Assembly: GCF_003112695.1 (NCBI RefSeq)
Contig: NZ_BFBP01000010.1
Coordinates: 116,438-148,437 of the forward strand
Length of the DNA stretch: 32,000 nt
From: Azospira sp. I13
Lineage (GTDB): Bacteria > Pseudomonadota > Gammaproteobacteria > Burkholderiales > Rhodocyclaceae
Direction of reading: 5' to 3'
In this document: piece after piece, positions 1,432-23,382 of the stretch
How positions within the stretch are numbered: position 1 is the first letter of the stretch
How the letters are laid out: every line of letters starts with the position of its first letter
Program-made: the position numbers and the translations under genes
The notes under the pieces: generated by a model
Database searches by the model: none
The model's input: the letters and a program-made list of their open reading frames with translations, nothing else
What the model was told of the DNA's origin: nothing

Positions 1432-1765
1432 GCGAACTCCCGAAAGAGATGACTGACAGCGCTTCGATGCACTCCCGCCGCTTTTTCAACGTCTGCCGAT
1501 ATTTTCGGTGCACGCCTGCGGCTTCGGGAATGCCGGCGGGGAGAACCCAAAAATAAGGCGCTCCTCGCCACGGAGGCCCGTAAGGGCATCCGGAGGACCG
1601 CCAGTGTATACCGTTTTTTGCAACGCAACATTGCCGTTTTCCCAACCTTACCCCCACTCCCCCACCGATTCATGCCGGCGTCCTTGACAAGGATGCAGAC
1701 GGTGGCGGAAACCCGCCAACTGTCTGGTAAACTTGCGGTTTCCACATCCAAGCCCCCGGGCCCCC

Positions 1766-2581: not shown

Positions 2582-2621
2582 CATCCTCCGAATCATCAAC
2601 CTTTCACATTCCCGAGGTCCC

Positions 2622-3434: not shown

Positions 3435-3435
3435 C

Positions 3436-3702
3436 ATGTCCCTGCTCGACCTTCTCTTCGGCCAGAAGCCCAAGACCGCCTCGGTCGCCAAGGAACGCCT
3501 GCAGCTCATCATTGCCCGCGAACGCAGTGGCGAGCAAAGCTCCCCTGACTTTCTGCCGCAATTGCAGCAGGAGTTGATTGCCGTCATCTCCAAGTACGTC
3601 AAGGTGAATCAGGACGACATCAAGGTTTCCCTGGAAAAGAAAAACAACTTCGAGGTACTGGAAGTCAACATCGTCCTGCCGGAAGTCCCCACAGGCCGCT
3701 GA
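3436..3702 (+). CDS. minE: Cell division topological specificity factor MinE
   Basis: 88 aa, [30 protein letters not shown]... is the typical MinE N-terminus. The start lies 1 nt after the minD stop. Confidence 0.95.
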
Positions 3703-3718
3703 CGACTGTTCGCTCAAC

Positions 3719-3757
3719 AAAAAGGCCGGTGCGAGTTTCGCACCGGCCTTTTTGTTT
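3719..3757 (+). terminator. Rho-independent terminator after minE (flanking A and T tracts, so potentially bidirectional)
   Basis: Stem GGCCGGTGCG (3724-3733) pairs with CGCACCGGCC (3739-3748) around a 5-nt loop, followed by TTTTTGTTT. Confidence 0.7.
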
Positions 3758-3783
3758 GCCATGAATACGCTTAGATTCTTGCA

Positions 3784-3815
3784 ATAAAAAACGGGCACCC
3801 GAAGGTGCCCGCTTT
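3784..3815 (-). terminator. Rho-independent terminator of the porin gene
   Basis: The minus strand reads GCGGGCACC-TTCG-GGTGCCCG followed by TTTTTTATT. It lies about 30 nt downstream of the porin stop at 3843. Confidence 0.65.
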
Positions 3816-3842
3816 CAACTTCAAACTCTCGGTGAGGAGAGA

Positions 3843-4961
3843 TTAGAAGGAGTGACGCAGACCAACTTGCACGCCGGAGTTGGTGGCGCCAGCAGCGGTA
3901 CCGCCGATGGGGCTCACGCCGAAGCCGTAGTTGGCGAAGTCGTTGTTAGCCAGACGGGAGTAGGTAGCCTTCAGCAGGGTGCGCTTGGACAGGCTGTGCT
4001 CGTAACCGACGGCGAACAGCTTGGCACCGGTTTCGTTGGCGGTAGCACCAGCAACCTTCACGTCGCCAGCCTTGTAGTACTGAGCAACCAGCTTGCCGTT
4101 GGTGGTGACGTTGTAGGTACCACCGATACCCCAGACGTTTTGCTTGATGTCGGTACCGACGTTGTCGTCAGCCTTCACGCGGTCGTACATAACGCGCAGG
4201 GAAGCCACGCCGAAGTTGTAGGAACCGCCCAGACGCAGGTCCTTGGCCTTGGTGTCGTTCAGGTCGCCCAGAGCAACGTGGTTGTAGGTCAGACCAGCCA
4301 TGATCGGGCCGTTGTTGTACACAGCACCAACGTCGTAACCCTTCAGGTTAGCCTTGACAACAGCGTTGTCCAGGGTCTTGTTTTCGCCAGAAACGTAAGC
4401 ACCGGTCAGGGTGAAGCCGCTCAGGTTCGGGGAGATGTAGGCGATGGTGTTGCTGAAGCGGGTGTCGAAAACGGAGTTTTCGATGGTGGCGCCACGAGCA
4501 GCGGGAGCGCTGATCACGGGAACCATGTTACCCAGCTTGCCGATGATGCCGCTGTTGGCGCCAATGCCGGTGGAGCCAGCAAACACGTCCAGGGAAGCAC
4601 CCAGAGCACGGGTCGGGCCGGTCAGGCGACCAGCAGCAACGGTACCGAAGCCACCAGCGATACCAGCGTAGGAATCACGAGCGGTGTTCAGGCCAGCACC
4701 GGTGTCGAAAGCGACGGAGGATTCGAACTGGAACACAGCCTTCAGGCCGTTGCCCAGATCTTCCAGGCCCTTGAAGCCGATGTAGGAAGAGTTGGTGGAA
4801 ACACGGGTCATGGAGCCCAGGTCGGCGTTGCCGGCGGCGCTGGAGGTCTTGACGACGTCGAAGGTGGCGTCAGCAACACCGTAGATGGTGACGTTGGATT
4901 GAGCGAAAGCAGCGGTGGAAGCCAGGCCAGCGACGGCCAGAGCGATCAGTTTCTTTTGCAT
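3843..4961 (-). CDS. Outer-membrane general porin (Gram-negative porin, betaproteobacterial type)
   Basis: The ATG at 4961 is preceded by AGGAG. A signal peptide MQKKLIALAVAGLASTAAFA precedes QSNVTIYG. The protein is Gly/Asn/Tyr-rich with beta-strand character and ends in the C-terminal ..GLRHSF motif. The 5' extension of the track ORF to 5141 is unlikely to be real. Confidence 0.85.
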   Translation of the reverse strand: MQKKLIALAVAGLASTAAFAQSNVTIYGVADATFDVVKTSSAAGNADLGSMTRVSTNSSYIGFKGLEDLGNGLKAVFQFESSVAFDTGAGLNTARDSYAGIAGGFGTVAAGRLTGPTRALGASLDVFAGSTGIGANSGIIGKLGNMVPVISAPAARGATIENSVFDTRFSNTIAYISPNLSGFTLTGAYVSGENKTLDNAVVKANLKGYDVGAVYNNGPIMAGLTYNHVALGDLNDTKAKDLRLGGSYNFGVASLRVMYDRVKADDNVGTDIKQNVWGIGGTYNVTTNGKLVAQYYKAGDVKVAGATANETGAKLFAVGYEHSLSKRTLLKATYSRLANNDFANYGFGVSPIGGTAAGATNSGVQVGLRHSF

Positions 4962-5166
4962 CAGGTTTTCTCCTCTTGCAATTAGGAAAGGCAGCGTTGT
5001 TTCCGTGCCCCTTGAATACCACCTCTGATTTGAGGGGTTGGACGGATTCTGGCAAAGGGACGGCAGGGGAGCAATCGCCATGGGCTTTCCCGGCACCTCT
5101 TTTTGAGCACCTGTTGTGTTTTTACAACACAACAACAGCATAAGCCAGGAATCCCTATGCCTTAAG

Positions 5167-5198
5167 CGATAAACGCCGCCCGGAGGCGGCGTTTATCG
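5167..5198 (-). terminator. Perfect 14-bp hairpin downstream of trpC (terminator-like, weak U tract)
   Basis: CGATAAACGCCGCC-CGGA-GGCGGCGTTTATCG. It lies 46 nt downstream of the trpC stop on the minus strand. There is no clean T run, so function is uncertain. Confidence 0.45.
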
Positions 5199-5243
5199 CC
5201 GTGTTGATTGCCATCTTCGCCCGTCAGGCGATGTCGGGTGAAA

Positions 5244-6041
5244 TCAGCCGAACAGCTCGGCCAGCGCAGCGCCCGGCTGGGGCGCCCGCATGAAAGCCTC
5301 CCCGACGAGAAAGCTGGCGACGTTGTGTTCACGCATCAGCGCCACATCTGCGGGCGCAAGAATACCGCTCTCGGTCACCACCAAACGCTCGGCACCAATG
5401 CGGGGCAACAACCCAAGGGTGGTTTGCAGGGAAACCTCAAAGGTCCGCAGATTGCGGTTGTTGATGCCCATCAGGGGCGTCCGCAACTGCAATGCCAGTT
5501 CCAGCTCGTCGCCATCATGAGACTCCACCAGTACGGCCATGCCCAGCTCCATGGCCAGGGCTTCCATTTCCTGCATCTGGGCCAGGCTCAGGGCGGAGAC
5601 GATGAGCAGGATGGCATCTGCCCCCATGGCCCGAGCTTCATAGACCTGATAAGGATCGACGAGGAAGTCTTTGCGCAGGGCGGGCAACGCACAGGCGGCC
5701 CGGGCCGCCTGCAGATATTCCGGAGCGCCCTGGAAGTACTGACGATCCGTCAGCACGGAAAGACAGGCGGCACCATGGGCCGCGTAATCAGCTGCGATGG
5801 CGGCCGGATCGAAGTCCTCCCGGATCACCCCCTTGGAGGGGCTGGCCTTTTTGACTTCCGCAATAACGGCAGCGTGACCGGCAGCCAGCTTGGCGCGGAT
5901 GGCACCGACGAAATCCCGGGCGGGGTCCATCTTGACCCGGGCCTCGGCCTCGGCACGGATCTCGGCCAGGGATTTACTGGCCTGCGCGGCCGCCACCTCG
6001 TCCTGCTTGGTAGCGAGAATCTTCTTGAGGATGTCGCTCAT
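5244..6041 (-). CDS. trpC: Indole-3-glycerol-phosphate synthase
   Basis: 265 aa, with ..[20 protein letters not shown]...LSVLTD..YFQG...LRKDF.. matching conserved TrpC motifs. Its start shares an ATGA overlap with the trpD stop. Confidence 0.95.
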
Positions 6042-7060
6042 GCACCGGCTCCGGTGAAACGCACGAATTCGTCCAACTTGGCCCGGGCTGCGCCACAGGC
6101 GATCACATCCAGAGCCTTCTCCACCCCTTCAGCCATGGTCTCGGCCAAGCCAGCCACATAGAGGCTGGCACCGGCATTCAGGGCAACGATATCCCGGGCC
6201 GGGCCGTTCTTGCCTTCCAGGGCAGCCAGCACCATGGCCTTGGATTCTTCCACATTGCCCACCCGGATCACCCGGGGATCGTGCACCGGCAGGTTGAAGT
6301 CTTCCGGATGAATTTCGTATTCCAGGATGCGCCCGTCCTTCAGCTCGCCAATGAGCGTGCGACCGGAGTTGGAGATTTCATCCAGACCATCCACCCCGAA
6401 TACAGTGAAAGCCCGCTGGGAGCCCAGGCGTTGCAGCACGCGGATGAGGATGCCTACCAGATCGGCATGGAACACTCCCAGCACCTGGCGCGCCGCGCCG
6501 GCCGGGTTGGTCAGGGGGCCAAGGATATTAAAAATGGTGCGCACCCCCAGCTCCCGACGCACCGGGGCGGCGTGTTTCATGGCGCCGTGGTGGTTGGGGG
6601 CGAACATGAAACCGATGCCCACGGTCTCGATGCACTCGGCAATGCGCTCGGGCGGCAAATTGAGGTTTACGCCCAGGGCTTCCAGCACGTCCGCCGAGCC
6701 GCTCTTGGAGGAAACGGAGCGGCCGCCGTGTTTGGCGACCTTGGCCCCGGCGGCGGCACAGACGAACATGGAGGTGGTGGAGACGTTGAAGGTGTGGGCA
6801 CCATCACCGCCGGTACCGACGATATCCACCACGGCAGCGGGATCCTGCACCGGCACCTTGGTGGCGAACTCGCGCATCACCTGGGCAGCAGCGGCGATCT
6901 CGCCGATGGTTTCCTTCTTTACCCGCAGGGCCGTGGTGATGGCGGCGATCATCACCGGACTCATTTCGCCGGACATGATCTGGCGCATCAGCGCCAGCAT
7001 TTCGTCGTGGAAGATTTCCCGGTGCTCGATACAGCGGGTCAAGGCTTCTTGCGGGCTCAT
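6038..7060 (-). CDS. trpD: Anthranilate phosphoribosyltransferase
   Basis: 340 aa, with [17 protein letters not shown] and [21 protein letters not shown] motifs. Its start shares an ATGA overlap with the trpG stop. Confidence 0.95.
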
Positions 7061-7629
7061 TTGGCGTGCTCCTTGAGGAAATTCTGCAGCATGTCGTGGC
7101 CGTGTTCGGTGAGGATGGACTCGGGGTGGAACTGGACCCCTTCCACCGCCAGGGTCTTGTGCCGCACCCCCATGATTTCACCGTCGTCGGTCCAGGCAGT
7201 GATCTCCAGGCAGTCCGGCAGGCTTTCCCGCTCGATGGCCAAGGAGTGGTAACGGGTGCAGGTCACCGGATTGGGCAAGCCCTTGAAAACGCCCTGATCA
7301 TTGTGATGCACGGGCGAAGTCTTGCCGTGCATCAGCTTCTTGGCATGCACGATGCGCCCGCCGAAGGCCTCGCCGATGGACTGATGGCCCAGGCACACGC
7401 CCAGCAGGGGAATCTTGCCGGCGAATTCGCGGATGGCCGCCAGGGAAACCCCCGCCTGCTGGGGCGCACAGGGCCCCGGGGAAATCACCAGATAGTCCGG
7501 GTTGAGACGGGCGATCTCGCCCAGGGTGATGGCGTCGTTGCGATAGACGCGCACATCCTGGCCCAGCTCGCCGAAGTACTGGACGATGTTGTAGGTGAAG
7601 CTGTCGTAGTTATCGATCATCAGCAGCAT
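7057..7629 (-). CDS. trpG: Anthranilate synthase component II / aminodeoxychorismate synthase glutamine amidotransferase
   Basis: The start is taken at ATG 7629 ([23 protein letters not shown]). The catalytic GVCLGHQ motif and an H..E (FHPES) pair are present. The longer track ORF to 7785 would overlap trpE and is rejected. Confidence 0.9.
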
Positions 7630-7639
7630 GGCAGCGCCC

Positions 7640-9115
7640 TCACTCGAAACGGGTATCGAGGCCGTTCTCGGCCATTTCCGCAGCCCGCAGCACGGCCCGG
7701 GCCTTGTTCTGGGTTTCCTGCCATTCGGAGCTGGGGTCCGAATCGGCGACGATGCCGGCCCCGGCCTGCACGTGCAACTGGCCATCCTTGATCACCGCGG
7801 TGCGGATGGCAATGGCCAGGTCCATATCGCCGTTGAAGCCCAGGTAGCCGATGGCGCCGCCGTAGATGCCGCGCTTCACCGGTTCCAGTTCGTCGATGAT
7901 TTCCATGGCCCGCACCTTGGGGGCACCGGACAGGGTCCCGGCGGGAAAGGCCGCCTTCAGCACATCCAGGGCGGAGAGGCCCGGCTTGAGCTTGCCTTCC
8001 ACGTTGGAAACGATGTGCATCACGTGGGAGTAACGCTCGATGCTCATGCGCTCGGTGAGCTTCACCGAGCCGGTCTGAGCCACCCGGCCGACGTCGTTGC
8101 GGCCCAGGTCCAGCAGCTGTACGTGTTCGGCGATTTCCTTCTGGTCCGCCAGCAGATCCTCAGCCAGGGCCGCATCCTCCTCCGGCGTCGCTCCCCGCTT
8201 GCGGGTGCCGGCGATGGGCCGCACCGTCACGGTATCGCCTTCCAGACGGGTGAGGATTTCGGGGGAAGCACCCACCACATGGAAGTCCTCGAAATCGAAG
8301 TAAAACATGTAGGGGGAAGGGTTAAGGGTACGCAGGGCCCGGTATAGGGACAACGGGCTGGCAGTGAAGGGCTTGGTCATGCGCTGGGACAGCACCACCT
8401 GCATGATGTCGCCTTCGGTGATGTAGCCCTTGGCCTTGGCCACCGCCTGCTTGAAGGGCGCCTCGCCGAAGATGGAAACGGCCGGCTGGGAAGCTGCCGG
8501 CTTTTCCTCGGGAATGGGCGCCGGGGTGCGCAGTTGCGCCAGCAGTTCCTTCAGCCGGGCCTTGGCTTTCTGAAAGGCCCCGGGGAAGCCAGGCTCGGCA
8601 TAAACCACCAGGCTCAGCTTGCCGGAGAGGTTATCCACCACTGCGATCTCCTCCGAGAGCAGCAGCAGAATGTCCGGCGTACCCAGCTCATCGTGCTTGG
8701 CCGCCTTGGTCAGGCGGGTTTCCACATAGCGCACCGTGTCGTAGCCGAAGCAGCCCACCAGGCCGCCGCAGAAGCGGGGCAGGCCGGCGTAGGGAGCGAC
8801 GCGGAAGCGCTGCTGGAAGCTCTCGATGAACTCCAGGGGATTGGTGTCGTTTTCACGCTCGGCGATGCGCTGTCCGGTCAGCACCATGACCTGGTGGCCA
8901 TAGACGGCGATGCGGGTGGGGCTGGAAAGCCCGATGATGGAATAGCGGCCGAAGCGCTCACCGCCCTGCACGGACTCCAGCAGGTAGGTGTAGGGGCCGT
9001 TGGCCAGCTTCAGGTAGATGGAAAGGGGCGTGTCGAGATCGGCAAAGGTCTCGAGGGTCACGGGGATACGGTTGTACCCCTGCGCGGCAAGCGCGTTGAA
9101 TTCGGTTTCGGTCAT
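7640..9115 (-). CDS. trpE: Anthranilate synthase component I
   Basis: 491 aa with chorismate-binding enzyme motifs (..[14 protein letters not shown].., ..[25 protein letters not shown]..). A GAGGT Shine-Dalgarno precedes the ATG. Confidence 0.95.
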
Positions 9116-9205
9116 GGGGACCTCGCAAGTACGACAGGTTGTATTTCAATGCTTGCCCGGGGTGTTTGGGTTTCAACCCGCCGCCCGGGCCCGGGCGGGT
9201 AATTA

Positions 9206-9277
9206 TCAGCGTTGGCGCGGGGAGCGCCAGTCAACGCAGACGCGGCCACGCCAGCCCCAGGCGGCGCGGTTACCCAT
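9206..9277 (-). promoter_or_regulatory. Candidate Trp-rich leader mini-ORF upstream of trpE (speculative)
   Basis: A minus-strand ATG at 9277 opens a 23-codon ORF, MGNRAAWGWRGRVCVDWRSPRQR*, with three Trp codons including W-G-W. It is followed by GC-rich hairpins built from self-complementary CCCGGG repeats. No U-tract terminator and no clear Shine-Dalgarno are present. Confidence 0.3.
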
Positions 9278-9334
9278 CAGGAAAGCATTGAACTTGCGGG
9301 TCACGGTGAAGTGTCGATTCGGAGTCGGTATCGA

Positions 9335-9997
9335 TTAAGCGCCGGCCGCCCAACGGGCCGCTGCGACGAGGTCCGATACTAGCGCATCGCAATCGGCGCT
9401 GTCTACGGGCCGCCCCTCGTTGTAACCATAGGGCACGCAGATCACCGGGCAGCTGGCGGCCCGGGCCGACTCGATGTCGTTGTGGGAGTCACCCACATGC
9501 AGATTAAGGTCCGGCGCCACGCCCAGCCGGGCACAGGCATGCAACAGGGGCTCGGGCCGCGGCTTCTTGAAAGCAAGGGTGTCGCCGGAGACGACCACGT
9601 CGAAATAGCCGGCCAGGCCCATGCGTTCCAGCAGGGGGCCGGTAAAGGCCGCCGGCTTGTTGGTCACTACGCCCAGGGGCAGATCTAAGGCACGGAAGGC
9701 TTCCAGCCCCGCCACCACGCCGGGATAGACCGTGCTGGCCCGACCGTTGATCTCCGCATAGTGCTTGCGGAAGGCGGCAATGCCGGCCTCCAGCAGCGTT
9801 GCCTCGGGCACTACATCCCAGGTCAGGCAGCGCTCCACCAGCACCGCCATGCCCTTGCCGACGAAACGGTGGATGTCGCCGTCCGTGCGGGGTGGCTGGC
9901 CCAGCTCGGCCAGCATGGCGTGGCAGGCGGCCGCCAAGTCGGGGATGGAATCGACCAGGGTACCGTCCAGGTCGAAGGTGGCCGCACGCAGGCGCAT
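9335..9997 (-). CDS. gph: Phosphoglycolate phosphatase (HAD superfamily)
   Basis: The start is taken at ATG 9997 (MRLRAATFDLDGTLVDS...). HAD motifs DLDGT, VVTNK and GDSHNDI are present. The gene occupies the conserved rpe-gph-trpE position. Confidence 0.85.
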   Translation of the reverse strand: MRLRAATFDLDGTLVDSIPDLAAACHAMLAELGQPPRTDGDIHRFVGKGMAVLVERCLTWDVVPEATLLEAGIAAFRKHYAEINGRASTVYPGVVAGLEAFRALDLPLGVVTNKPAAFTGPLLERMGLAGYFDVVVSGDTLAFKKPRPEPLLHACARLGVAPDLNLHVGDSHNDIESARAASCPVICVPYGYNEGRPVDSADCDALVSDLVAAARWAAGA

Positions 9998-10004
9998 CGG
10001 CGAA

Positions 10005-10694
10005 TCAGGCCTTGGCCAGTTCGCTGCGCAGGGCGGCAATCACCGAGTCGTAGCGATGGGGGTCGCTGTCCTTCCCGGCACCATAAACGGCAGAACCGGC
10101 AACGAAGGTATCGGCACCGGCCCGGGCGACCTCGGCGATATTATCCACCTTCACCCCGCCATCAATTTCCAGGCGGATCTGGCGACCGGTACGGGCGGTA
10201 TAGGCATCAATTTTGGCCCGGGCTTCCCGCAGCTTGTTGAGGGTCCCGGGGATGAACTTCTGGCCGCCGAAGCCCGGGTTCACGCTCATGATCAGCACCA
10301 CGTCCAACTTATCCATGACGTAGTCCATGTAGTGGAGGGGCGTCGCCGGATTGAAGACCAGGCCGGCCTGGCAGCCGCAGTCATGGATCAGGCCAAGACT
10401 GCGGTCCACGTGCTCGGAGGCTTCCGGGTGGAAGGTGATGATATTGGCACCGGCCTTGGCAAAGTCGGGAATGATGCGATCCACCGGCTTAACCATCAGG
10501 TGAACGTCAATGGGCGCCTCGGTGTGGGGGCGGATGGCCTCGCAGACCAGGGGACCGATGGTGAGGTTGGGGACGTAATGGTTGTCCATCACGTCGAAGT
10601 GGATCCAGTCAGCGCCGGCAGCGATGACGGAACGGACCTCCTCCCCCAGCTTGGCAAAATCGGCGGAAAGGATACTGGGGGCAATGAGATTCAT
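10005..10694 (-). CDS. rpe: Ribulose-phosphate 3-epimerase
   Basis: The start is taken at ATG 10694 ([20 protein letters not shown]...[16 protein letters not shown]...). The 229-aa protein looks like canonical Rpe. Confidence 0.95.
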
Positions 10695-10813
10695 GGGGCG
10701 GCCTGCGGTGGAAAGTGGCGAGGGCCGGATTTTACCGTGAACCCGGGATGACTCCGGCTTGTCAGAGCCTGCGTAGTGTTGTGGAATGACACTTTCCCCC
10801 AACGGAAACTCCC

Positions 10814-14269: not shown

Positions 14270-14536
14270 TCAGGCCATGCCGGCCAGCGCCCCTTGCAGA
14301 TCGAAATCTGCGCCACCACCCTGCACCTGGCTGGCGATACTCTCCACCCGGGCCAGGTAACCCAGAGCCCGCAACTGTCCAGCCCAGAGCTCCGCATCTT
14401 CATGGGAGCCCAGCCAGGGGCCGGTATCAACGACCCATTTACCCCGATGGTCGAGCCATCTGCTGACTACGCGATGCACCTGCTGCGGTATCCAATCTGG
14501 GCGGGTGGAAGGGAATGCCAGCCCTACGCACAACAC
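14270..14536 (-). CDS. Hypothetical protein (~88 aa if the GTG at 14536 is the start)
   Basis: The C-terminal part of track ORF 14270..14752 has coding-like composition (..RPDWIPQQVHRVVSRWLDHRGKWVVDTGPWLGSHEDAELWAGQLRALGYLARVESIASQVQGG..). The upstream part of that ORF crosses a terminator hairpin and the att repeat, so it cannot be coding. The start codon is unresolved and I recognise no family. Confidence 0.3.
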   Translation of the reverse strand: MLCVGLAFPSTRPDWIPQQVHRVVSRWLDHRGKWVVDTGPWLGSHEDAELWAGQLRALGYLARVESIASQVQGGGADFDLQGALAGMA

Positions 14537-14635
14537 GGTGAGCGGCGGCAGAGTTATCCCATACCCGCCGCTTGAAAACACCTGGGTTGCCGCCCGATTG
14601 ACAGCCAGCCGCCTTTGCTGAATGGCTTCTCCGGC

Positions 14636-14668
14636 AAGAAAAAAGCCCGCACGGGGCGGGCTTTTTGG
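14636..14668 (-). terminator. Terminator hairpin; near-duplicate of the hairpin downstream of argJ at 19303-19332
   Basis: AAAAAAGCCCGC-ACGGG-GCGGGCTTTTT. On the minus strand the stem is followed by TTTTTTCTT. It shares the blocks AAAGCCCGC and GCGGGCTTTTTT with the hairpin next to argJ. Confidence 0.6.
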
Positions 14669-14699
14669 GGCGAAAACGGGGAAGTCCCGCAATCGATGC

Positions 14700-14717
14700 A
14701 CTCCGGTAATCGGCGTT
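14700..14717. repeat. Left copy of the 18-bp direct repeat (att core candidate)
   Basis: ACTCCGGTAATCGGCGTT here matches ACTCCGGTAGTCGGCGTT at 19372-19389 at 17 of 18 positions. The right copy encodes the last codons of argJ (..NADYRS). Confidence 0.65.
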
Positions 14718-14748
14718 ATAGACACAAAACCCGCATAAAATCTAGGAT

Positions 14749-15117
14749 TCATGCAACGCCACGCTTTACCGTACCCGGTTCCGTACCCGGTTTTGTGATT
14801 TCACGCCCTAGATGGCCCCAAGGTTCCGCCGCCCGTCCGATGAAATAGGCCCGCGCCTCTTCATCTTCCTGACACTTGCCCATCACCTCGGCTATGGTCG
14901 CCGGGTCGGTTTCGCCTATCTGGGCCAGCCATAACCGGATTGGGCTGCAATTCCACGCTGCCAACTCATCAACGATTGCCGCCTTGTATTGCCGGATAAG
15001 AGGGAGCCAGCGCCCCACCGCCGCTTGGTCGCCGGTTGCCTTGAGGCTCCCCGTGTCGGAAAGGGCCAGCACCACTCCTTCTGCCGTCGCCGCCTGGATC
15101 ACTTGGGCGGGGGTCAT
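14749..15117 (-). CDS. Hypothetical protein (122 aa), translationally coupled to the primase
   Basis: Its ATG shares an ATGA overlap with the primase stop. Sequence: MTPAQVIQAATAEGVVLALSDTGSLKATGDQAAVGRWLPLIRQYKAAIVDEL... then ...WLAQIGETDPATIAEVMGKCQEDEEARAYFIGRA. The N-terminal ~50 aa loosely resemble TubC_N-type docking motifs (recollection only). The last ~15 codons are encoded by the tandem CCGTACCCGGTT repeats. Confidence 0.6.
   Translation of the reverse strand: MTPAQVIQAATAEGVVLALSDTGSLKATGDQAAVGRWLPLIRQYKAAIVDELAAWNCSPIRLWLAQIGETDPATIAEVMGKCQEDEEARAYFIGRAAEPWGHLGREITKPGTEPGTVKRGVA
14769..14792. repeat. Tandem CCGTACCCGGTT x2 (candidate arm-type recombinase sites, left end)
   Basis: CCGTACCCGGTTCCGTACCCGGTT. 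The same 12-mer recurs at 19189-19200, and the core ACCCGGTT recurs four more times at 19206-19263. Confidence 0.6.
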
Positions 15118-17465
15118 ACTTCCACCTCCACATGATTCCCCTGGCTTTCCCCGCTTCTATCCGTAACAGCGTCACAATCCAGTATTAGCGCGGGTTTCGG
15201 CGTGACGGACAGGGTTTTGCTGGGGTAACGTGACGGATGATCCGTAACGGCAAAACCCACATGGTTGCTGGGTTGTGACGCTGTTACGCTTGTACCGCTG
15301 GAAAGGGCCAGATAACGCGCAAAGGCCTCTTTGAATTGCTCAAGCTCAAACCCTTTCGCCGTTTCATGACCAAGGCGGATCGTCTTACTGGCGATTCCAT
15401 ACTCCTTCAGCCGCGTGGCAACCTGGCGCGGGCTGATAGGCTTGCCTCGGTTGTAGGTCGCCCACGACTTCTCGTCGTCATCGCATAGATGCTGGATCAG
15501 GTCCGCCGTGCTGATCTTGAGCAACTGCTTTGTCTCGAATAGTTCCCGAATATCAGCCAGTAGCTCATTACCTACCGTGCCTCCATCCTCCCCGCTGCCG
15601 GAGAGTTTCAGGGCCGCATGACGAGCAAGGCTCGGCCACTCCCCTCCGGCAAGTTCGGCAATGGCAAGCAGGGGCTCCCAATTGTCCTGGGCACGGTCAT
15701 TCAGGGCGGCGGGCAGATCGGGGCGTACCTGACGCAGGGCCTCCCGGTTGTCGATAGCAAAGCGGGCCAGTTTCGCGGCCAGGTCATCAAACAAACCCGG
15801 TTCGGCATGGCGCAAGCGTTGCACCTCTTCATGGGGGAGCTTGCGCCGCAGCTCCAGAACAATGGCGCGGTCCATGATGGTATCGGCCAGGTGACCAATC
15901 CCCGCCAGCGCCTTGGCTCCCCAGACGTTGAAACGCTTGGGGGTATGGTCGTCGCCCACCACGCGCACGATATAGGCCGAATCGCGGGTATGCCCGCAGT
16001 TCAGCAGCCCCCGCAGCTCCTCGTTATCCTTCATGAAGGCGTCTGCCTCATCCACCAGCAGGGTGGGCTTCCAGGCATCAACCGCCCGAAACAGGGCCGC
16101 AGGAGTGATATTGCTGGCCGCCAATGGGCGATGCACCAGACGCCCCAGCAAAAACAGCAGTTGGGACTTTCCGCAGCGTTTCTCCGGTGCGGTAATCACA
16201 GCCAGGGGTGCCACCTGAACCACATCCATGAACCAGGACATGGAAACCCACAGCGCCGCCGCGTGGGCAGTTTCCTCCGGGCAGATGATGAACCGCTGAA
16301 CGGTCGCCGACAGGTCAGACAGGAGCGCCCCAGCCACTACCGAATGCGGCCACGGTGTCACGTCATCAAAGTCGATGCCCTCGGTTTCGTTCTTCTTCTG
16401 TTTCCTGGCTTTAACCTCTTTATCCAGAGTAATACTACGCACTCCGAGCGCCTTGGCTTCCGCTTCCCGTACTCGGTCATATTCGATAGGCGAAAGCTCG
16501 GCCAAGCGCCCTATACGGCTATCGTCGTTAGTAGGTACCACAACCTGGGGCGTATAGTCGGATTCCATGGCAATGCCAATGCTGCGGGCCACAGAGTCCA
16601 AGCCCATCAGCACGGCCATATCGTTGAAGTCCGTCGCCCCATCCGGTCTATCGGTTCCGAAGTCGGGGAAGGCCAGCTTGCCGCCGACGGCCTGGGCCGC
16701 TTCTATAGCCTTGGTTTTGCCGGTGTTGCCTTCGGTTCGGTAGTCATCATCCCCGCAGACGATCAGGGGCAGGTCGGGAAACTTCGCCCGCATCGCCTGG
16801 GCCACCCCCAGCAGGTTGCCTGCATTGAAGGCCACCGCCACCGGGTAGCCCGTCGCTTCGTGAATGCTGGCCCCGGTAGCAAAGCCCTCACAGATCACCA
16901 GCCTCGCCGCCCCCGTGGGATTGCCGATGCTGAAATAGCAGCCCCTTACCCGGCCACCGGGTAAGAATCGCTTGCCACCGTCCTCACCAATGAATTGCAG
17001 GCTGTGAATGTCGCCATCAGCCCGCACGGGGATCACTAGGGCATCACCGCTCAGGCGTACCCCGTAGGGCTTGATCTGCTTACGGGCAAGGTAGGGATGA
17101 TCCACCGGGGCGGCGGGACTAGCTTTCCATATAGCACCGGCCTTTTCCCTGGACTCAGCCTTGCGGCGGGTTTCCTCGGCTTCCCTAGCCTGCCGCATGG
17201 CCTCCACCCTGGCCCTGTGCGCTCCCTCTTCTGCCGGGGAAAGAGTGCGGCCAATGTCCGCCCGCCAGTTCTGGATTAGACCACTGCGCCAATCGCCAAA
17301 ACTCCCAGCCGGGATACCATCACCGTGCAGGCAATACCATCCGGAATCGTCGCCGCGTTTGCCGTTGCTGGAAAAGCGCCGCAGCTTGCCGTCGTCCTCG
17401 ATTACGTCAGGCGGCGTCAGGCCAGCAGCTTGAATAGCATCCCTGAATTGCTGCAATGGGGACAT
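15114..17465 (-). CDS. Primase/replicase: COG4643-like N-terminus + Toprim domain + DUF3631-type P-loop domain with C-terminal wHTH
   Basis: 783 aa. The N-terminus is ..DDGKLRRFSSNGKRGDDSGWYCLHGDGIPAGSFGDWRSG.. The Toprim domain shows ..LVICEGFATGASI.. and ..LIVCGDDDY.. A Walker A-like APEKRCGKS and Walker B-like LLVDEAD follow. The C-terminus ..WATYNRGKPISPRQVATRLKEYGI.. is typical of DUF3631 proteins of genomic islands. Confidence 0.85.
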   Translation of the reverse strand: MSPLQQFRDAIQAAGLTPPDVIEDDGKLRRFSSNGKRGDDSGWYCLHGDGIPAGSFGDWRSGLIQNWRADIGRTLSPAEEGAHRARVEAMRQAREAEETRRKAESREKAGAIWKASPAAPVDHPYLARKQIKPYGVRLSGDALVIPVRADGDIHSLQFIGEDGGKRFLPGGRVRGCYFSIGNPTGAARLVICEGFATGASIHEATGYPVAVAFNAGNLLGVAQAMRAKFPDLPLIVCGDDDYRTEGNTGKTKAIEAAQAVGGKLAFPDFGTDRPDGATDFNDMAVLMGLDSVARSIGIAMESDYTPQVVVPTNDDSRIGRLAELSPIEYDRVREAEAKALGVRSITLDKEVKARKQKKNETEGIDFDDVTPWPHSVVAGALLSDLSATVQRFIICPEETAHAAALWVSMSWFMDVVQVAPLAVITAPEKRCGKSQLLFLLGRLVHRPLAASNITPAALFRAVDAWKPTLLVDEADAFMKDNEELRGLLNCGHTRDSAYIVRVVGDDHTPKRFNVWGAKALAGIGHLADTIMDRAIVLELRRKLPHEEVQRLRHAEPGLFDDLAAKLARFAIDNREALRQVRPDLPAALNDRAQDNWEPLLAIAELAGGEWPSLARHAALKLSGSGEDGGTVGNELLADIRELFETKQLLKISTADLIQHLCDDDEKSWATYNRGKPISPRQVATRLKEYGIASKTIRLGHETAKGFELEQFKEAFARYLALSSGTSVTASQPSNHVGFAVTDHPSRYPSKTLSVTPKPALILDCDAVTDRSGESQGNHVEVEV

Positions 17466-17475
17466 TTCTGGCCCC

Positions 17476-17712
17476 TCAAGCTTTACGGCTTTTTTCGATC
17501 TGTGCGGTCAGCCATGCATCTATTTCGGCCTCCACCCATCCCACAGCTTTTGCACCAATAGATACAGGCAATGGGAAAGTAGGATCGTAGTCACCGGGAC
17601 GCTTGGGGTTTTGGCGTATCTTGCTATAGATGGTGGAACGAGAAAGCCCAGTGCGGGCCTCTACCTGCTTACGGCGCAAAATGACAGGGGCGGGCTGAAA
17701 TTTGAGAGCCAT
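17476..17712 (-). CDS. alpA: AlpA-family phage regulatory protein / putative excisionase (MerR-type HTH)
   Basis: 78 aa, with ..ILRRKQVEARTGLSRSTIYSKI....FPLPVSIGAKAVGWVEAEIDAWL.. matching the Phage_AlpA pattern. It lies 10 nt upstream of the primase gene. Confidence 0.85.
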   Translation of the reverse strand: MALKFQPAPVILRRKQVEARTGLSRSTIYSKIRQNPKRPGDYDPTFPLPVSIGAKAVGWVEAEIDAWLTAQIEKSRKA

Positions 17713-17901
17713 GCTTTTCCTTCCGATTAAAGAAGGCCAGAGCGGAGTGCTCTGGCTCGCCCCGAATTATTTAATCCAGCTTAGGCACATCGCCTGCCTG
17801 CAAATTTCGCATTGACTATTCAATAGCAAAAATCCCGATAACTGCCGACAGGTGCGCTCCCAGCGTCCCGCAGTAGCATAGCCTCCACAGGGGCCCTTCC
17901 A

Positions 17902-19167
17902 TTACAAGGCCCCATTGCTGCGCAGAGGCACCACATCAGCCCCCTTAATCCAGGCTTCTGTCAAATCAGCCCATTGCTGCATTAATGCCCGCCGTTGGTC
18001 CAGCTTCTTGGCGTGGTTGTATGCCCCCCGGACCTTGTTGCGCTCGGCATGGGCAAGGCATAGCTCGATCACCTCATGATCTGCGCCCGCCTCATTGAAG
18101 AAGGTGGAGAAGGTGCCACGCACCCCATGGGGAGTAAATTTACCGGCATACCCAGCGCGATTGAATACATCCCGGATTCCCTCATGGGTAAGGGGCTGCT
18201 CCCGGTCCTTCCTCCCAGGAAAGACATAGCGCCCCCGGCCCGTTAGCGCCTGCATCCCCCGCAGGATTTCCACCGCCTGGAAAGACAGGGGCACGGTATG
18301 GGCTTCCCGCATCTTCATCCGCTCGGCAGGCACAGTCCAAAGCCCGGCCTCTAGGTCAAACTCCTGCCATTCGGCACAGCGTAATTCCACCGTCCGAACC
18401 ACGGTCAGCCACAGCAACTTGGCGGCGGCCTTGGTCGCGTTTTCCGCTTGCACGTCCTCCAACGCCCGCAGGAAGGCGGGTATCTCTTTAGTGGCCAGGT
18501 GGGCGATGTGTTGGGTCTTGGGTGCCTTGAGGGTATTACGTAGGGGCCAGGTGGGGTCTGCTTCCACCAGCAATTCACCGGCTGCATACCGGAAAACGCC
18601 CCCTATCCAGGTTTTCAGCAGCTTGGCACTAGCCGGTGAGCCACGCTTTTCCAGACGTTTGAGTACGTCCTTAACGTGGGCCGGTGTAACCGACTTGATA
18701 GGCAAAGCCCCAATCCATGGGAAGGCATCGCCGGAAAGGCGTTGCTTGATCTGCCGCAGGTAATTGGCGGACCAGTGGCTTTCGTTCTCCCTGATCCAAG
18801 TTTCAGCCACCGCCTGAAAGGTGCTTTCTGCCTCCAGGGAGCGGCGCAGCCTATCGGTTTGCTGGCTGTGAGAGGGATGAATGCTCTGTTTAACCAGCCC
18901 CCGGCAACGCTCGCGCTCTACCCGAGCCTCGGCCAAGGTGAATTGCCGGGCATCCCGCCTAGCCTGGGCTTCCTTCTGGGACTCCCCGGCAGGGGGTTGG
19001 CAGTAGCTCCCCAAGGCGAACAGGTTTTCCTTGCCCCCTATCTCGTACCTATAACGCCATAGCTTGGAACCGTTGGGGCGGACCTCCAGATAAAGACCAT
19101 TCCCGTCGCGCAGCTTCAACGGTTTGTCTGCTGCCTTGGCGGTGCGGCATTGCGTGTCTGTCAGCAT
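17902..19167 (-). CDS. int: Tyrosine recombinase, P4-type integrase (DUF4102 N-terminal arm-binding domain + catalytic domain)
   Basis: 421 aa. The N-terminus MLTDTQCRTAKAADKPLKLRDGNGLYLEVRPNGSKLWRYRY is canonical for P4-like integrases. The catalytic residue context is ..TPHGVRGTFST.. and ..LAHAERNKVRGAYNH.. Confidence 0.95.
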   Translation of the reverse strand: MLTDTQCRTAKAADKPLKLRDGNGLYLEVRPNGSKLWRYRYEIGGKENLFALGSYCQPPAGESQKEAQARRDARQFTLAEARVERERCRGLVKQSIHPSHSQQTDRLRRSLEAESTFQAVAETWIRENESHWSANYLRQIKQRLSGDAFPWIGALPIKSVTPAHVKDVLKRLEKRGSPASAKLLKTWIGGVFRYAAGELLVEADPTWPLRNTLKAPKTQHIAHLATKEIPAFLRALEDVQAENATKAAAKLLWLTVVRTVELRCAEWQEFDLEAGLWTVPAERMKMREAHTVPLSFQAVEILRGMQALTGRGRYVFPGRKDREQPLTHEGIRDVFNRAGYAGKFTPHGVRGTFSTFFNEAGADHEVIELCLAHAERNKVRGAYNHAKKLDQRRALMQQWADLTEAWIKGADVVPLRSNGAL

Positions 19168-19188
19168 TGGCGAGCCTTTCAGGGCCTT

Positions 19189-19263
19189 CCGTACCCGGTT
19201 TTTCGCTGTACCCGGTTTTCAGAACCGGGTACAGCACTTCGATACCCGGTTTTGCACCCGGTT
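19189..19263. repeat. Cluster of five ACCCGGTT motifs between int and the att core, including a perfect 12-bp inverted repeat
   Basis: GTACCCGGTT occurs at 19191-19200 and 19208-19217, with an inverted copy AACCGGGTAC at 19223-19232. ATACCCGGTT is at 19242-19251 and GCACCCGGTT at 19254-19263. CTGTACCCGGTT-ttcag-AACCGGGTACAG (19206-19234) is a perfect palindrome. The first motif lies only ~22 nt upstream of the int ATG. Confidence 0.6.
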
Positions 19264-19302
19264 TTTATCCGGATTGCAATGGACGACAGCGGAACGATAC
19301 AG

Positions 19303-19332
19303 ACAAAAAAGCCCGCATTTACGCGGGCTTTG
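19303..19332 (-). terminator. Rho-independent terminator downstream of argJ
   Basis: The minus strand reads AAAGCCCGC-GTAAAT-GCGGGCTTTTTTGTCT. It lies about 40 nt after the argJ stop. Confidence 0.7.
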
Positions 19333-19368
19333 TGGGTTTCTCCGGACTTCACCGGATGCAGTCTGGAA

Positions 19369-20610
19369 CTAACTCCGGTAGTCGGCGTTGATTTTCACGT
19401 AGTCGTAGGAGAAATCACAGGTGTAAATATCGCCGCCGGCCGGGCCGCGAGCCAGGTCGACCCGCACGGTGATTTCGGCATTCTGCATGATGCGGGAACC
19501 ATCAGCTTCCTTGTAGCTGGCCGCCCGACCGCCCTTTTCCGCCACCAGTACGGTATCGGCGCCGCTGCCCAACCACACCCGGATGTTGCCCACATCCAGG
19601 TCAGCAATACCGGCGTAGCCGATGGCGGCCAGGATACGGCCGAGATTGGGGTCGGAAGCGAAGAAGGCGGTCTTTACCAGGGGAGAATGGCCGATGGCGT
19701 AACCCACCTTGCGACACTCCTCCAGATCCTTGCCGCCTTCCACCGCCACGGTGATGAACTTGGTAGCGCCTTCGCCATCCCTCACGATGGCCTGGGCCAG
19801 TTCGATGGAAACTTCCACCAGGGCAGCACGCACGGCAGCCCAGGCCGGGTCCTGGGCGTCCTTGACGTGCAGGCCGCTCTGACCGGAGGCCATGAGGATG
19901 AAGGAATCGTTGGTGGAGGTGTCGCCATCCACGGTGATGCAGTTGAAGGACTGGTCCGCCGCTTCCTTGGCTACCTGCGCCAGCAGTTGCTGGGGAATGC
20001 CCGCATCGGTGGCGACGAAGCCCAGCATGGTGGCCATGTTCGGCTTGATCATGCCGGCGCCCTTGGAGATACCGGTGACGGTAATGGTCTTGCCGCCCAC
20101 CTGAATACGGCGGGAAGCGGCCTTGGCCACGGTGTCGGTGGTCATGATGGCGTGGGCGGCAGCATGCCAGTTGTCCGCCTTCAGGTCGGCGATAGCGGCG
20201 GGCAGGCCGGCTTGCAGCCGATCCACAGGCAACGGTTCGAGAATGACGCCGGTGGAGAACGGCAGCACCGCCCGATCTTCATCCAGGCCAAGCAGGCCGG
20301 CCAGGGTGGCGCAGGTCTGCATGGCGGCCTGCAGGCCGGTTTCGCCGGTGCCGGCATTGGCGATACCGGTATTGATGACCAGGGCGCGAATTTCCGGATC
20401 GCGCCCCAGGTGACGGCGGCAGACCTGAACCGGGGCGGCGCAGAAACGGTTCTGGGTGAATACGCCGGCCACGGTGGTGCCCGGATCCAGGGCAATGACG
20501 GTCAGGTCCCGTCGATTGGCCTTGCGGATTCCGGCTTCGGCAGTACCGAGACGGACCCCGGCAACGGGGAACAAGGCTTCAGGGGCAGGCGTGGCGTAAT
20601 TGACGGGCAT
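19369..20610 (-). CDS. argJ: Bifunctional glutamate N-acetyltransferase / amino-acid N-acetyltransferase
   Basis: 413 aa. The autoprocessing site context is ..[15 protein letters not shown].. The C-terminus ..[11 protein letters not shown] is typical of ArgJ. Confidence 0.95.
19372..19389. repeat. Right copy of the 18-bp direct repeat (att core candidate), inside the argJ 3' end
   Basis: ACTCCGGTAGTCGGCGTT. Its reverse complement AACGCCGACTACCGGAGT encodes N-A-D-Y-R-S, the last six codons before the argJ stop codon. Confidence 0.65.

Positions 20611-20685: not shown

Positions 20686-23382
<2,697 letters not shown>

Follow-up and report, generated by a model that had tools for sequence, protein, structure and literature searches.

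P4 alpha is a multidomain primase/helicase-like/DNA-binding replicase that recognizes short iterons (ori and crr). Among other small elements, the PICMI of Vibrionaceae encode DUF3987 (PF13148) or DUF5906 (PF19263) primases and lie next to fis, and int, alpA and prim were shown to be necessary for the lifestyle of PICMI115 (PMC10803314). VEIMEs, with monomers of <5 kb to 16.8 kb, are packaged as concatemers and have no capsid genes (PMC9618062). In actinomycete pMEA300, the 8-bp repeats bound by RepAM lie within the 3′ end of the gene for RepAM itself and can fold into a hairpin (PMC2440964). Here we describe a 4,672-bp element of Azospira sp. I13 that we interpret, with moderate confidence, as a self-replicating, site-specific, core-only member of a Toprim-RepAM (DUF3631) island family that includes PICI/cf-PICI-like satellites.

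We analyzed a stretch of 32,000 nucleotides (the window), in which argJ (19369-20610, minus strand; Pfam ArgJ, E=9e-142) carries a 4,672-bp insertion within its last 18 bp, counting one core copy. The insertion is flanked by an 18-nt direct repeat with one mismatch (14700-14717 and 19372-19389), the sole such pair in the window and one with no copies in 100 shuffles. The original prediction had taken these repeats as the bounds of an element of about 4.7 kb (14700-19389, a span of 4,690 bp), and both the repeat search and the empty sites bear this out. The uninterrupted site, secA-argJ-ccp without an insert, is present in two contigs, L092 (NCBI GCA_054403835.1) and L093 (JGI 3300003887). These contigs are 98.3-99.9% identical to the flanks of the window, and the alignments end at window positions 14717 and 19371. 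The flanking genes are chromosomal, and secA, argJ, ccp and lysR keep their order in the empty-site strains. Because strains that are ~99% identical in the flanks carry an empty attB, the boundaries are exact and the unit has moved recently. The locus is thus a discrete integrative element, neither debris nor the edge of a prophage.

Exactly four genes lie between the repeats, co-directional on the minus strand and all full length, which together with the empty attB in near-identical strains upholds the earlier view that the element is not debris. The ORF and domain scans recovered only the predicted int/alpA/primase core and one coupled ORF. The element was integrated in all eight of the contigs read that carry the replicase. 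While the proposed search for an empty attB succeeded, the search for an excised circle did not: JGI metagenome contigs contained neither the predicted attP junction nor an element end. We found no excised circle, packaged form or helper phage for the element, and no identical copy outside I13-type contigs, the next closest replicase being 83% identical.

All argJ homologues end in ...KINADYRS, and the last 18 nt of the gene form the attachment core, so that the repeat copy at 19372-19389 corresponds to the final six codons (NADYRS, then the stop). This attL core (AACGCCGACTACCGGAGT on the minus strand) is the same as the attB of the empty-site contigs. The attR core (AACGCCGATTACCGGAGT, 14700-14717, minus strand), located by the repeat search and the empty-site alignments, differs by one mismatch. 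The element provides a new argJ stop codon (TAG, 19369-19371), and a terminator-like hairpin from the hairpin scan, borne by the element just past argJ (19308-19331, minus strand), appears from its position to replace the native argJ terminator. The native terminator-like hairpin, which is chromosomal and lies outside the element (14639-14667, minus strand; read from the sequence and absent from the list of the hairpin scan), is located ~35 nt past the argJ stop in the empty-site contigs and is parted from argJ in I13. Because the element brings its own stop codon and putative terminator, argJ is intact after insertion. The chromosomal side just past the attR core is missing the TGA (3 bp) found in the empty attB. 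Because attR is without these 3 bp, precise excision would strip argJ of its stop codon (+86 aa). The flanking sequence is thereby offset by 3 bp, which may hamper excision, and the deletion may trap the element at argJ.

The int gene (17902-19167, minus strand) encodes a 421-aa P4-type tyrosine integrase with the Pfam domains Arm-DNA-bind_3, Phage_int_M and Phage_integrase (PF00589, E=6e-25; phrog_1, E=8e-69). According to our reading of the translation, it keeps the putative catalytic R, HxxR, H and Y motifs. The product of alpA (17476-17712, minus strand) is a 78-aa AlpA-family excisionase/regulator (Pfam Phage_AlpA PF05930, E=5e-18) that matches phrog_66, 'excisionase and transcriptional regulator'. 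A hairpin or palindrome found by the hairpin scan in the 190-bp spacer between int and alpA (17736-17756, minus strand) could be an int terminator or an operator. Upstream of int, the repeat search found five ACCCGGTT(T/C)T repeats (19189-19265), four direct and one inverted, and at the opposite end two CCGTACCCGGTT repeats in tandem (14769-14794). We presume that these are the integrase arm-type sites of the P' arm and the P arm, respectively. The 10-mer arm repeat has seven matches in the window, six of them at the two ends of the element, and relatives have lineage-specific repeats of their own at the same two places.

The replicase (783 aa; 15114-17465, minus strand) combines an N-terminal Toprim primase, a central P-loop module (GKS, DEAD) and a C-terminal RepAM-like DUF3631 domain (PF12307, E=4.5e-50, residues 539-718). 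A Pfam scan of the protein returned DUF3631, Toprim_3 and Toprim_4 only, and the protein matches PHROG DNA-primase families. More than 3,600 homologues were found, with end-to-end alignment to those of 775-842 aa, and the GKS and D-E-x-D columns are invariant in an alignment of 31 replicase sequences.

Repeat and fold analysis placed a candidate replication origin within the coding sequence of the replicase, at its 3′ end (15162-15288). Two 16-nt arms in perfect inverted repeat (CGTAACAGCGTCACAA ... 95 nt ... TTGTGACGCTGTTACG) enclose more copies of the CGT(A/C/T)AC iteron; nine of the 45 CGT[ACT]AC sites in the window fall within these 127 nt, and the DNA fold has a z of -5.2. The arrangement is kept, with co-varying repeats, in 32 relatives. 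Among 22 aligned relatives the inverted symmetry is maintained, and changes on both sides occur at 12 of 21 pairs. The number of both-side-change cells was 59, compared with 22.8 +/- 4.7 in shuffles, and was reached in none of 500. This predicted iteron/hairpin origin matches the RepAM origin described for pMEA300.

The fourth gene, ORF122 (122 aa; 14749-15117, minus strand), was taken from the ORF list and characterized by homologue search. Its start overlaps the replicase stop in the motif ATGA, an overlap that points to translational coupling of the two genes. The conserved part, with two domains, spans residues 1-100; it is followed by a disordered tail (residues 100-122) whose coding sequence runs through the arm sites. 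Homologues were found in 925 representative clusters (E<=1e-3), and relatives have an ORF122-like gene directly 3′ of the replicase. In the AF2 model (pLDDT 74) the N-terminal domain resembles TubC-type NRPS docking domains; neither the homologue nor the structure comparisons gave a capsid-related match.

Searches of the four proteins against Pfam, PHROGs, PADLOC and NCBIfam gave no match to a capsid, terminase, tail, relaxase or defense family, in agreement with the original prediction that capsid, packaging and conjugation genes are missing. The element also contains no pac/cos signal and no interference gene.

By gene content, a large family of proteobacterial islands (6-16 kb) has these four genes as its conserved core. 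The only clusters common to 14 bounded relatives (6.0-15.8 kb), all of them larger than the I13 element, are int, alpA, the replicase and the ORF122-like gene. Accessory genes of the larger relatives are found at int-alpA, at alpA-prim and after prim, and several islands of the family sit at tRNA or tmRNA genes. The closest relative (L096/L097; replicase 83% identical) has extra genes at three positions, namely DUF6387, HTH_39 and a baseplate-hub-like gene (phrog_196, E=2e-76), none of which is in the I13 element. Two other relatives, L080 and L090, carry terS (phrog_57, E=4e-26). In the IMG/VR contig L008, terL, protease, major capsid protein and portal genes lie beside a DUF3631 replicase that is 62% identical to that of I13, and the circular IMG/VR contig L009 has terL and terS together with the same origin layout as the I13 element. 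The replicases of L008 and L009 comprise the C-terminal module only. Neither 50,697 phage records nor 72,556 plasmid records contained the full Toprim+DUF3631 architecture, which leaves these two contigs as the sole evidence of virion association. The origin, the arm-type sites, the large ORF122 family, the larger (6-16 kb) closest relatives and the 3-bp loss at attR go beyond the original prediction.

The larger size of all 14 bounded relatives and the absence from the I13 element of the three accessory genes of the nearest one would also fit a stranded, reduced derivative, that is, a 6-10 kb satellite or island minus its accessory and packaging genes, which still integrates and perhaps replicates and has no horizontal spread. 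We consider this possible, though unlikely. The I13 copy may then not excise cleanly, in line with a would-be excision product that leaves argJ without its stop codon, and the confinement of identical copies to I13-type contigs points the same way. However, the extra genes of the nearest relative occupy three separate positions, so one deletion would not be sufficient, and no damage is seen in the four ORFs or the cis sites. The difference in presence between ~99%-identical strains shows that a unit with these exact ends was recently integrated or excised, and the genes found necessary for the PICMI115 lifestyle are int, alpA and prim (PMC10803314).

A conjugative route appears improbable. The element would be an integrative mobilizable element moved by a co-resident conjugative system through a cryptic oriT, possibly the hairpin at the 3′ end of rep. 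This would be consistent with the N-terminal 300 aa of the replicase, which share 37% identity with plasmid TraC proteins (annotated as conjugative-transfer primases), and with the long hairpin and its flanking repeats, as DUF3631/RepAM was first described in conjugative actinomycete elements with a hairpin and a putative nick site (PMC2440964, PMC3218068). Yet no relaxase/T4SS-type domain, coupling protein or FtsK-like Tra was found in the element or in the scanned subset of recurrent accessory clusters, the transfer-related genes of the scanned relatives are, where present, phage genes, and the full-length architecture is in none of the plasmid records. It is hardly credible that the locus represents fixed debris with a coincidental repeat or the margin of a larger prophage or island, even though the repeat is short (18 nt) and has one mismatch, since the empty sites in L092 and L093, aligned to both flanks and ending exactly at the repeat copies, refute it, and the syntenic chromosomal neighbors and the shuffles speak against it as well.

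If the element is instead a self-replicating core-only member of the island family, the P4-type integrase would bind the core and the ACCCGGTT arm repeats and recombine attP with the final 18 nt of argJ, where the insertion itself is observed. By analogy with PICMI and Gram-negative PICIs, excision would be directed by AlpA, whose activation probably comes from a phage that enters the cell or is induced. The excised circle would then replicate: the DUF3631 domain would bind the 8-bp iterons within the rep 3′ end, the P-loop module would open or unwind the DNA and the Toprim domain would prime, as suggested by pMEA300 RepAM and P4 alpha. ORF122 is probably an accessory subunit that docks onto the replicase. 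As genes for packaging, capsids and conjugation are all missing, spread of the element would depend on a helper phage that takes up the multimers produced by replication through headful packaging, as for PICMI and marine VEIMEs.

The resemblance to pMEA300-type elements lies in the DUF3631/RepAM domain next to an integrase/excisionase module and in the identical, hairpin-capable 8-bp repeats at the rep 3′ end, here at 15162-15288 with binding predicted (PMC2440964, PMC3218068). In contrast to these 13-23 kb elements, the I13 element is 4.7 kb and proteobacterial, its RepAM domain forms one protein with a Toprim primase and a P-loop module, and it has no FtsK-like Tra, Kor or Nudix genes. It does not fall among the AICEs, as it contains no FtsK/SpoIIIE-type Tra domain and its host is a betaproteobacterium. 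The P4-type integrase with an arm-binding domain, the AlpA-family protein and a likewise multidomain replicase with short iterons are shared with P4. P4 is larger (11.6 kb), and the I13 replicase has DUF3631 rather than a D5/SF3 helicase in its C-terminal half; sid, psu, delta, epsilon and cos functions were not found in Pfam/PHROG scans of the four proteins. By description, VEIMEs are also small integrative elements with integrase, AlpA and primase/helicase and no capsid genes, but they are defined by their presence in virions, whereas no packaged form of the I13 element was found.

Parallels also exist with PICMI and PICIs. Like PICMI, the element is very small, has an int/alpA/primase core without capsid-remodeling or terS genes and is integrated on the 3′ side of a housekeeping gene. 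It carries the tyrosine integrase (PF00589) and AlpA (PF05930; PF12728 is also allowed) of the PICMI definition, and the accessory positions in its larger relatives are those of PICMI115 (int, iolg, alpA, up1, prim, up2). However, its primase is Toprim_3+DUF3631 instead of the DUF3987/DUF5906 of the PICMI SatelliteFinder model, its site is the argJ 3′ end, between secA-argJ and ccp, instead of fis, and its host is a betaproteobacterium instead of a member of the Vibrionaceae. With primase family, site and host all different, the element is not a PICMI, and the distinct lineage proposed originally stands. In addition, int and alpA are direct neighbors, with nothing like iolg in between, defense genes are absent, and the element measures 4.67 kb, compared with 6.1 kb for PICMI115 and an average of 6.7 kb for PICMI. 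PICMI are helper-induced and their concatemers are packaged in full-size capsids; by analogy, a PICMI/VEIME-like satellite lifestyle is plausible for the I13 element. PICIs and cf-PICIs, as modeled in SatelliteFinder (PMC10085698), share with the element a left half of integrase, AlpA regulator (alpA/merR/stl in the model) and primase-replicase, here in the order int-alpA-rep on one strand (rep called from Pfam domains). Without terS and capsid-morphogenesis genes, the I13 element has three of the five PICI core components and is about half as long as the median PICI (9.5 kb; PMC10085698), and it differs from cf-PICIs in having no head genes of its own (terL, portal, protease, major capsid protein, connectors). 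The link to both is indirect, through the DUF3631-replicase relatives with terS (L080, L090) or a head/terminase module (L008, L009). As the stripped-down core of a family that includes satellites, the element may be one of the smallest satellites that parasitize phages.

Judged from its sequence, the 4,672-bp insertion at the end of argJ is a separate integrative element that has moved recently. Its genes for integrating, for controlling excision and for replicating are all full length and carry the expected domains, and it has att sites, presumed arm sites and a candidate origin typical of its family. On the minus strand the order is secA (20686-23382), argJ (19369-20610) and then the element, beyond which a gene for a di-haem cytochrome c peroxidase lies on the opposite strand. 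The original prediction of four co-directional genes between the repeats was confirmed, and domains were found for the integrase, AlpA and the replicase. The integrase has 421 aa (Arm-DNA-bind_3, Phage_int_M and Phage_integrase domains) and AlpA 78 aa. The replicase (783 aa, Toprim_3 and DUF3631) is identical to AZSI13_18620 of the betaproteobacterium Azospira sp. I13, and its stop codon is overlapped, as ATGA, by the start of a 122-aa reading frame (ORF122). In scans with Pfam, PHROGs, PADLOC and NCBIfam, none of the four proteins matched a capsid, terminase, tail, relaxase or defence model, which bears out the predicted lack of capsid, packaging and relaxase genes. ORF160 (14270-14752, minus strand) was rejected as cargo: it falls outside the element, runs across the native terminator of argJ and matches no family. 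It is annotated as a gene of 160 aa in public assemblies. The empty-site strains have a 140-aa version, so its first ~20 codons in the window are element DNA, and it is probably not a real gene.

To locate empty sites, we followed ArgJ homologues and their contigs. Two strains (L092, NCBI GCA_054403835.1; L093, JGI 3300003887) carry secA-argJ-ccp-lysR without the insert, and their ArgJ is listed at 100% identity. On either side of the element they share 98.3-99.9% identity with the window, and their alignments stop at window 14717 and 19371, overlapping by the core sequence. On the minus strand, attB reads ...AAAATCAACGCCGACTACCGGAGT-TGA-GCATCGATTG..., attL ...AACGCCGACTACCGGAGT-TAG-TTCCAGACTG... 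and attR ...GTGTCTATAACGCCGATTACCGGAGT-GCATCGATTG..., and alignment of the three sites gives the insert its length of 4,672 bp. The core is an 18-nt direct repeat with one mismatch (14700-14717 and 19372-19389), the right copy of which is the last six codons of argJ. The terminal repeats of the original prediction were verified as the sole such pair in the 32 kb, even with three mismatches allowed, and none arose in 100 shuffles. The window lacks tRNA genes according to ARAGORN, which rules out a tRNA target; the element sits in the 3′ end of argJ instead. The alignments of the empty-site contigs stop precisely at the repeat, and the notion that this is a chance repeat, an artefact or the edge of a larger prophage is therefore scarcely credible; the claim of a discrete element is upheld. 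These alignments also show that, within a ~99%-identical population, a unit with precisely these ends has either been inserted or been lost by excision.

The insertion gives argJ a new stop codon from the element, followed by a terminator-like hairpin (19331-19308). All ArgJ homologues inspected end in ...KINADYRS, so the protein is unaltered by the insertion. The replicase occurs at 100% identity in I13 and I13-type contigs only; the next best match is 83% identical. The excised form anticipated by the original prediction was not found either: an exact search of JGI metagenome contigs, a low-power test, matched neither the predicted attP junction GTGTCTATAACGCCGATTACCGGAGTTAGTTCCAGAC nor the element end. 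In the flanking region, Logan assemblies from different sequencing runs (L002, L003 and L005) all break at window ~20739, a point within the 3′ end of secA and 129 bp before argJ starts, which could reflect strain heterogeneity or a coverage artefact.

One end of the element departs from the expected sequence. The variable core position is C in attL and attB and T in attR, which places the crossover 3′ of this position, within TACCGGAGT, and predicts an attR of ...CCGGAGT-TGA-GCATCG. In the empty attB of the near-identical strains a TGA comes after the core (L092 3786-3788; L093 6049-6051), but these 3 bp are missing from the attR present (window 14699-14717). Seven Logan contigs, drawn from six sequencing runs of this strain, have the same TGA-less attR, which rules out a sequencing error. 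The excised attB is predicted to read ...GACTACCGGAGT(TGA)GCATCGATTG, with presence of the TGA as the variable, and the predicted attL x attR product is an argJ without a stop codon that reads through for 86 additional residues. Recombination between attL and attR would also bring the chromosomal arm 3 bp nearer the crossover region. The loss of TGA may reflect either imprecise integration or a later deletion that would lock the element in place, and the defect may impair excision.

Both ends also carry short repeats. With one mismatch allowed, the window has seven matches to the 10-mer ACCCGGTTTT, where 1.7 would be expected. All but one of the seven lie at the element ends, a single match at 14785-14794 and a group of five, of which one is inverted, at 19193-19265. 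A degenerate copy (14773-14782) is part of a tandem pair, CCGTACCCGGTT, at 14769-14792. Relatives with defined boundaries have their own short repeats at both equivalent places, for instance TTTTGTACCCC in L064, GTGTGCCCA in L019 and L013, TGGGGGTAACA in L066, GTGCACCCAA in L087 and TGTGAGTAAC in L080 and L090. We infer that these are putative arm-type sites, each set co-evolving with the arm-binding domain of its own integrase.

In an alignment of 31 replicases, the stretch between the Toprim and DUF3631 regions has an invariant GKS P-loop and an invariant D-E-x-D motif, giving the order primase, NTPase, DUF3631. Within the last ~200 nt of the replicase gene lies an array of an inverted repeat and iterons (15162-15288). 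It contains a perfect 16-nt inverted repeat (CGTAACAGCGTCACAA / TTGTGACGCTGTTACG) with arms 95 nt apart, each arm consisting of two 8-nt units, and further units lie between the arms. These 127 nt hold 9 of the 45 CGT[ACT]AC sites of the window (0.2 expected) and, folded as single-stranded DNA, reach z=-5.2 against shuffles. Because the array fits the published description of the origin of RepAM, the founding DUF3631 protein (PMC2440964), we call it a candidate origin of replication with predicted replicase-binding sites. An Rfam scan of the element returned nothing at the gathering score; the hairpin has a sub-threshold match to a miRNA-precursor model, which we assume is owed merely to its long hairpin shape.

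The inverted-iteron layout recurs at the equivalent place in most relatives, often with the identical 95-nt spacing, while the iteron unit changes in concert inside each element. The unit is GTAAC/GTCAC in the window and the Geobacter lineage, GCTAC in L031, L050, L081 and L087, GCAAC/GCCAC in L040, L043 and L044, GTCCC in L077, and GACAC/GGCAC in the circular IMG/VR contig L009. In an alignment of 22 elements, both sides of the arms change at 12 of 21 positions. The both-sides-changed cells number 59, against 22.8 +/- 4.7 in shuffles (none of 500 shuffles reaches 59), and the signal collapses on sliding the partner column. Read in frame, the iterons of the candidate origin (GTNAC) yield the [S/A]-V-T peptides that recur in the replicase tail, so that one DNA stretch appears to encode both the replicase tail and its predicted binding sites. 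Such co-varying iterons in rep offer a simple sequence marker for origin and replicon specificity across the family.

ORF122 has homologues in 925 representative clusters at E<=1e-3 (139 at E<=1e-10), with conservation across residues 1-100, which marks it as a member of a real family and not a chance reading frame. A similar gene lies directly 3′ of the replicase in 9 of 15 bounded elements, this one included, and after the replicase in 18 of 84 loci of a wider tblastn survey, including the closest relative (hhalign probability 99.5%). A role as a defence or capsid gene was rejected, since ORF122 matched nothing in PADLOC, PHROG or NCBIfam and had no significant match in Pfam. The AlphaFold model (pLDDT 74) has an N-terminal helix, a beta-hairpin and two helices, then a helical domain and a disordered tail (residues 100-122) whose codons run across the arm repeats. 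Foldseek matched the N-terminal domain best to 6ewu, 6ewt and 6ews (probability 0.96-0.99 but E=0.3-0.7), the family profile matched 6ewt at E=0.004, and two family members weakly match Pfam TubC_N. The modelled domain thus resembles TubC-type NRPS docking domains. Given this resemblance and the translational coupling, we hypothesize that ORF122 may be an accessory subunit that docks on the replicase.

The family behind the element is very large. The replicase has >3,600 homologues at E<=1e-10, nearly all of 770-850 aa, and its partner protein the 925 clusters; the literature searched makes no mention of the family. Using one genome per species, we obtained 309 loci and examined 80, most of which have a P4-type integrase 0.5-3 kb upstream of the replicase on the same strand. 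Fourteen relatives are bounded by direct or arm repeats (13 of 6.0-9.2 kb and one of 15.8 kb), and several elements sit at tRNA-Pro, tRNA-Ser, tRNA-Arg, tRNA-SeC or tmRNA genes. The only protein clusters broadly common to the bounded elements are the integrase, AlpA, the replicase and the ORF122-like protein, the remainder being mostly singletons. The Azospira element, the smallest bounded member, is therefore exactly the conserved core and nothing more. In the loci whose flanks were usable, another core-only element of <6 kb could not be delimited by any convincing direct repeat. A survey of related loci (L008-L091) did not extend the predicted four-gene module at argJ, as none of the 84 encodes an adjoining ArgJ.

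In the nearest relative (L096/L097), whose replicase is 83% identical, additional genes occupy three distinct positions: a 53-aa ORF, a 102-aa ORF and a DUF6387 protein between int and alpA, an HTH_39 protein between alpA and rep, and, as last gene after the ORF122 homologue, a 343-aa baseplate-hub homologue (L096 5130-6161; L097 6459-7490; phrog_196, E=2e-76). The latter is odd cargo for a ~7-kb island and could have a tail-related hijack or interference function. These accessory positions are those of PICMI115, whose order is int, iolg, alpA, up1, prim, up2 (PMC10803314). Geobacter-lineage loci (L014, L016, L017, L020, L026 and others) share genes 0.2-1.5 kb downstream of the replicase: right after it come a second tyrosine-recombinase-like gene (296 aa) and one for a small basic protein, then one for a membrane/coiled-coil protein. 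Since no direct repeat was found within 10 kb, these loci appear to be larger islands of another subtype.

Some relatives are linked to phages. A terS gene (phrog_57, E=4e-26) is present in two bounded 6-kb relatives, L080 (Nitrosomonas) and L090, and relatives of the DUF3631 part occur in four IMG/VR viral contigs. One of these, L008 (9.1 kb), encodes terL, a head protease, a major capsid protein, a portal protein, an integrase and a 500-aa DUF3631 protein 62% identical to our replicase. L009 (IMGVR_UViG_3300048832_000095, 1-10696), circular at ~10.6 kb with a 127-bp terminal overlap, encodes terL, terS, a weak capsid-like match and a primase-DUF3631 fusion; its N-terminal primase differs from the Toprim domain of the element, and its inverted-iteron origin layout is identical. 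By gene content both are cf-PICI-like, and L009 would be a satellite using the replicon type of the element. PICIs and cf-PICIs share and exchange an int-regulator-primase left half (PMC10085698). The full Toprim+DUF3631 architecture (>=80% of the protein covered) is absent from 50,697 phage and 72,556 plasmid records, where the two halves occur only apart; phage primases and plasmid TraC primases have the Toprim half, and Pseudomonas phage Phipami28 and small Streptomyces plasmids the DUF3631 half. Phipami28 is the sole strong phage match to the DUF3631 half; the protein (PV029746.1 31323-32543) is annotated as hypothetical and is 50% identical to replicase residues 366-771.

We see an even chance that the element is a core-only satellite wholly reliant on a helper phage, with a route between cells that we infer. 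This reading, the best supported, draws on PICMI115, for the lifestyle of which int, alpA and prim were shown to be necessary, on PICMI multimers, which fill normal capsids (PMC10803314), and on virion-borne marine elements without capsid genes, with monomers of <5 kb to 16.8 kb (PMC9618062). For induction of PICMI, expressing alpA by itself was enough. The Toprim-RepAM replicase, its internal origin and ORF122 as docking partner would generate multimers, and an Azospira helper phage would package these by the headful. Bolder, and doubtful on present evidence, is the proposal of a fully functional four-gene, 4.67-kb phage satellite that has no interference, packaging or defence gene and leads a PICMI-like lifestyle on a different replicase. 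If true, this lifestyle arose independently on another replicase, in a family of thousands across Proteobacteria. The PICMI work asked for the fewest functions needed to parasitise a tailed phage, and an integrase, AlpA, a replicase with built-in origin and a small partner make the element a natural candidate for a still smaller answer. As the strain is cultured and its genome complete, tests of excision, replication and transfer are feasible.

Against a satellite-type model stand the failure of the low-power attP search of JGI metagenome contigs to reveal a circle, the larger size of every bounded relative and the possible impairment of excision by the 3-bp attR defect. A stranded, reduced derivative is accordingly conceivable, if rather unlikely. 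Conjugative mobilisation via a cryptic oriT is improbable, as no conjugation domain was found in the scanned accessory genes of relatives and a subset of recurrent accessory clusters; the remaining probability falls to some other explanation.

In its presumed way of life the element resembles PICMI. Membership is ruled out by primase family, integration site and host, all outside the published definition (PMC10803314), and the claim of a distinct lineage holds: the element is a minimalist int-alpA-replicase island whose replicase and bacterial class differ from those of PICMI. It has three of the five PICI core components and none of the hijacking genes of P4. With pMEA300-type actinomycete elements it has the replicon type in common, including an origin within the rep gene, but it lacks their conjugation genes. 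The element connects three fields usually kept apart, namely the actinomycete RepAM replicon, the int-alpA-primase left half of PICIs and cf-PICIs, and the minimalist satellites (PICMI and VEIMEs). After PICMI and VEIMEs a specialist would expect such an architecture; the parts list here is unusually complete and small, and the element is smaller than any satellite with demonstrated activity.
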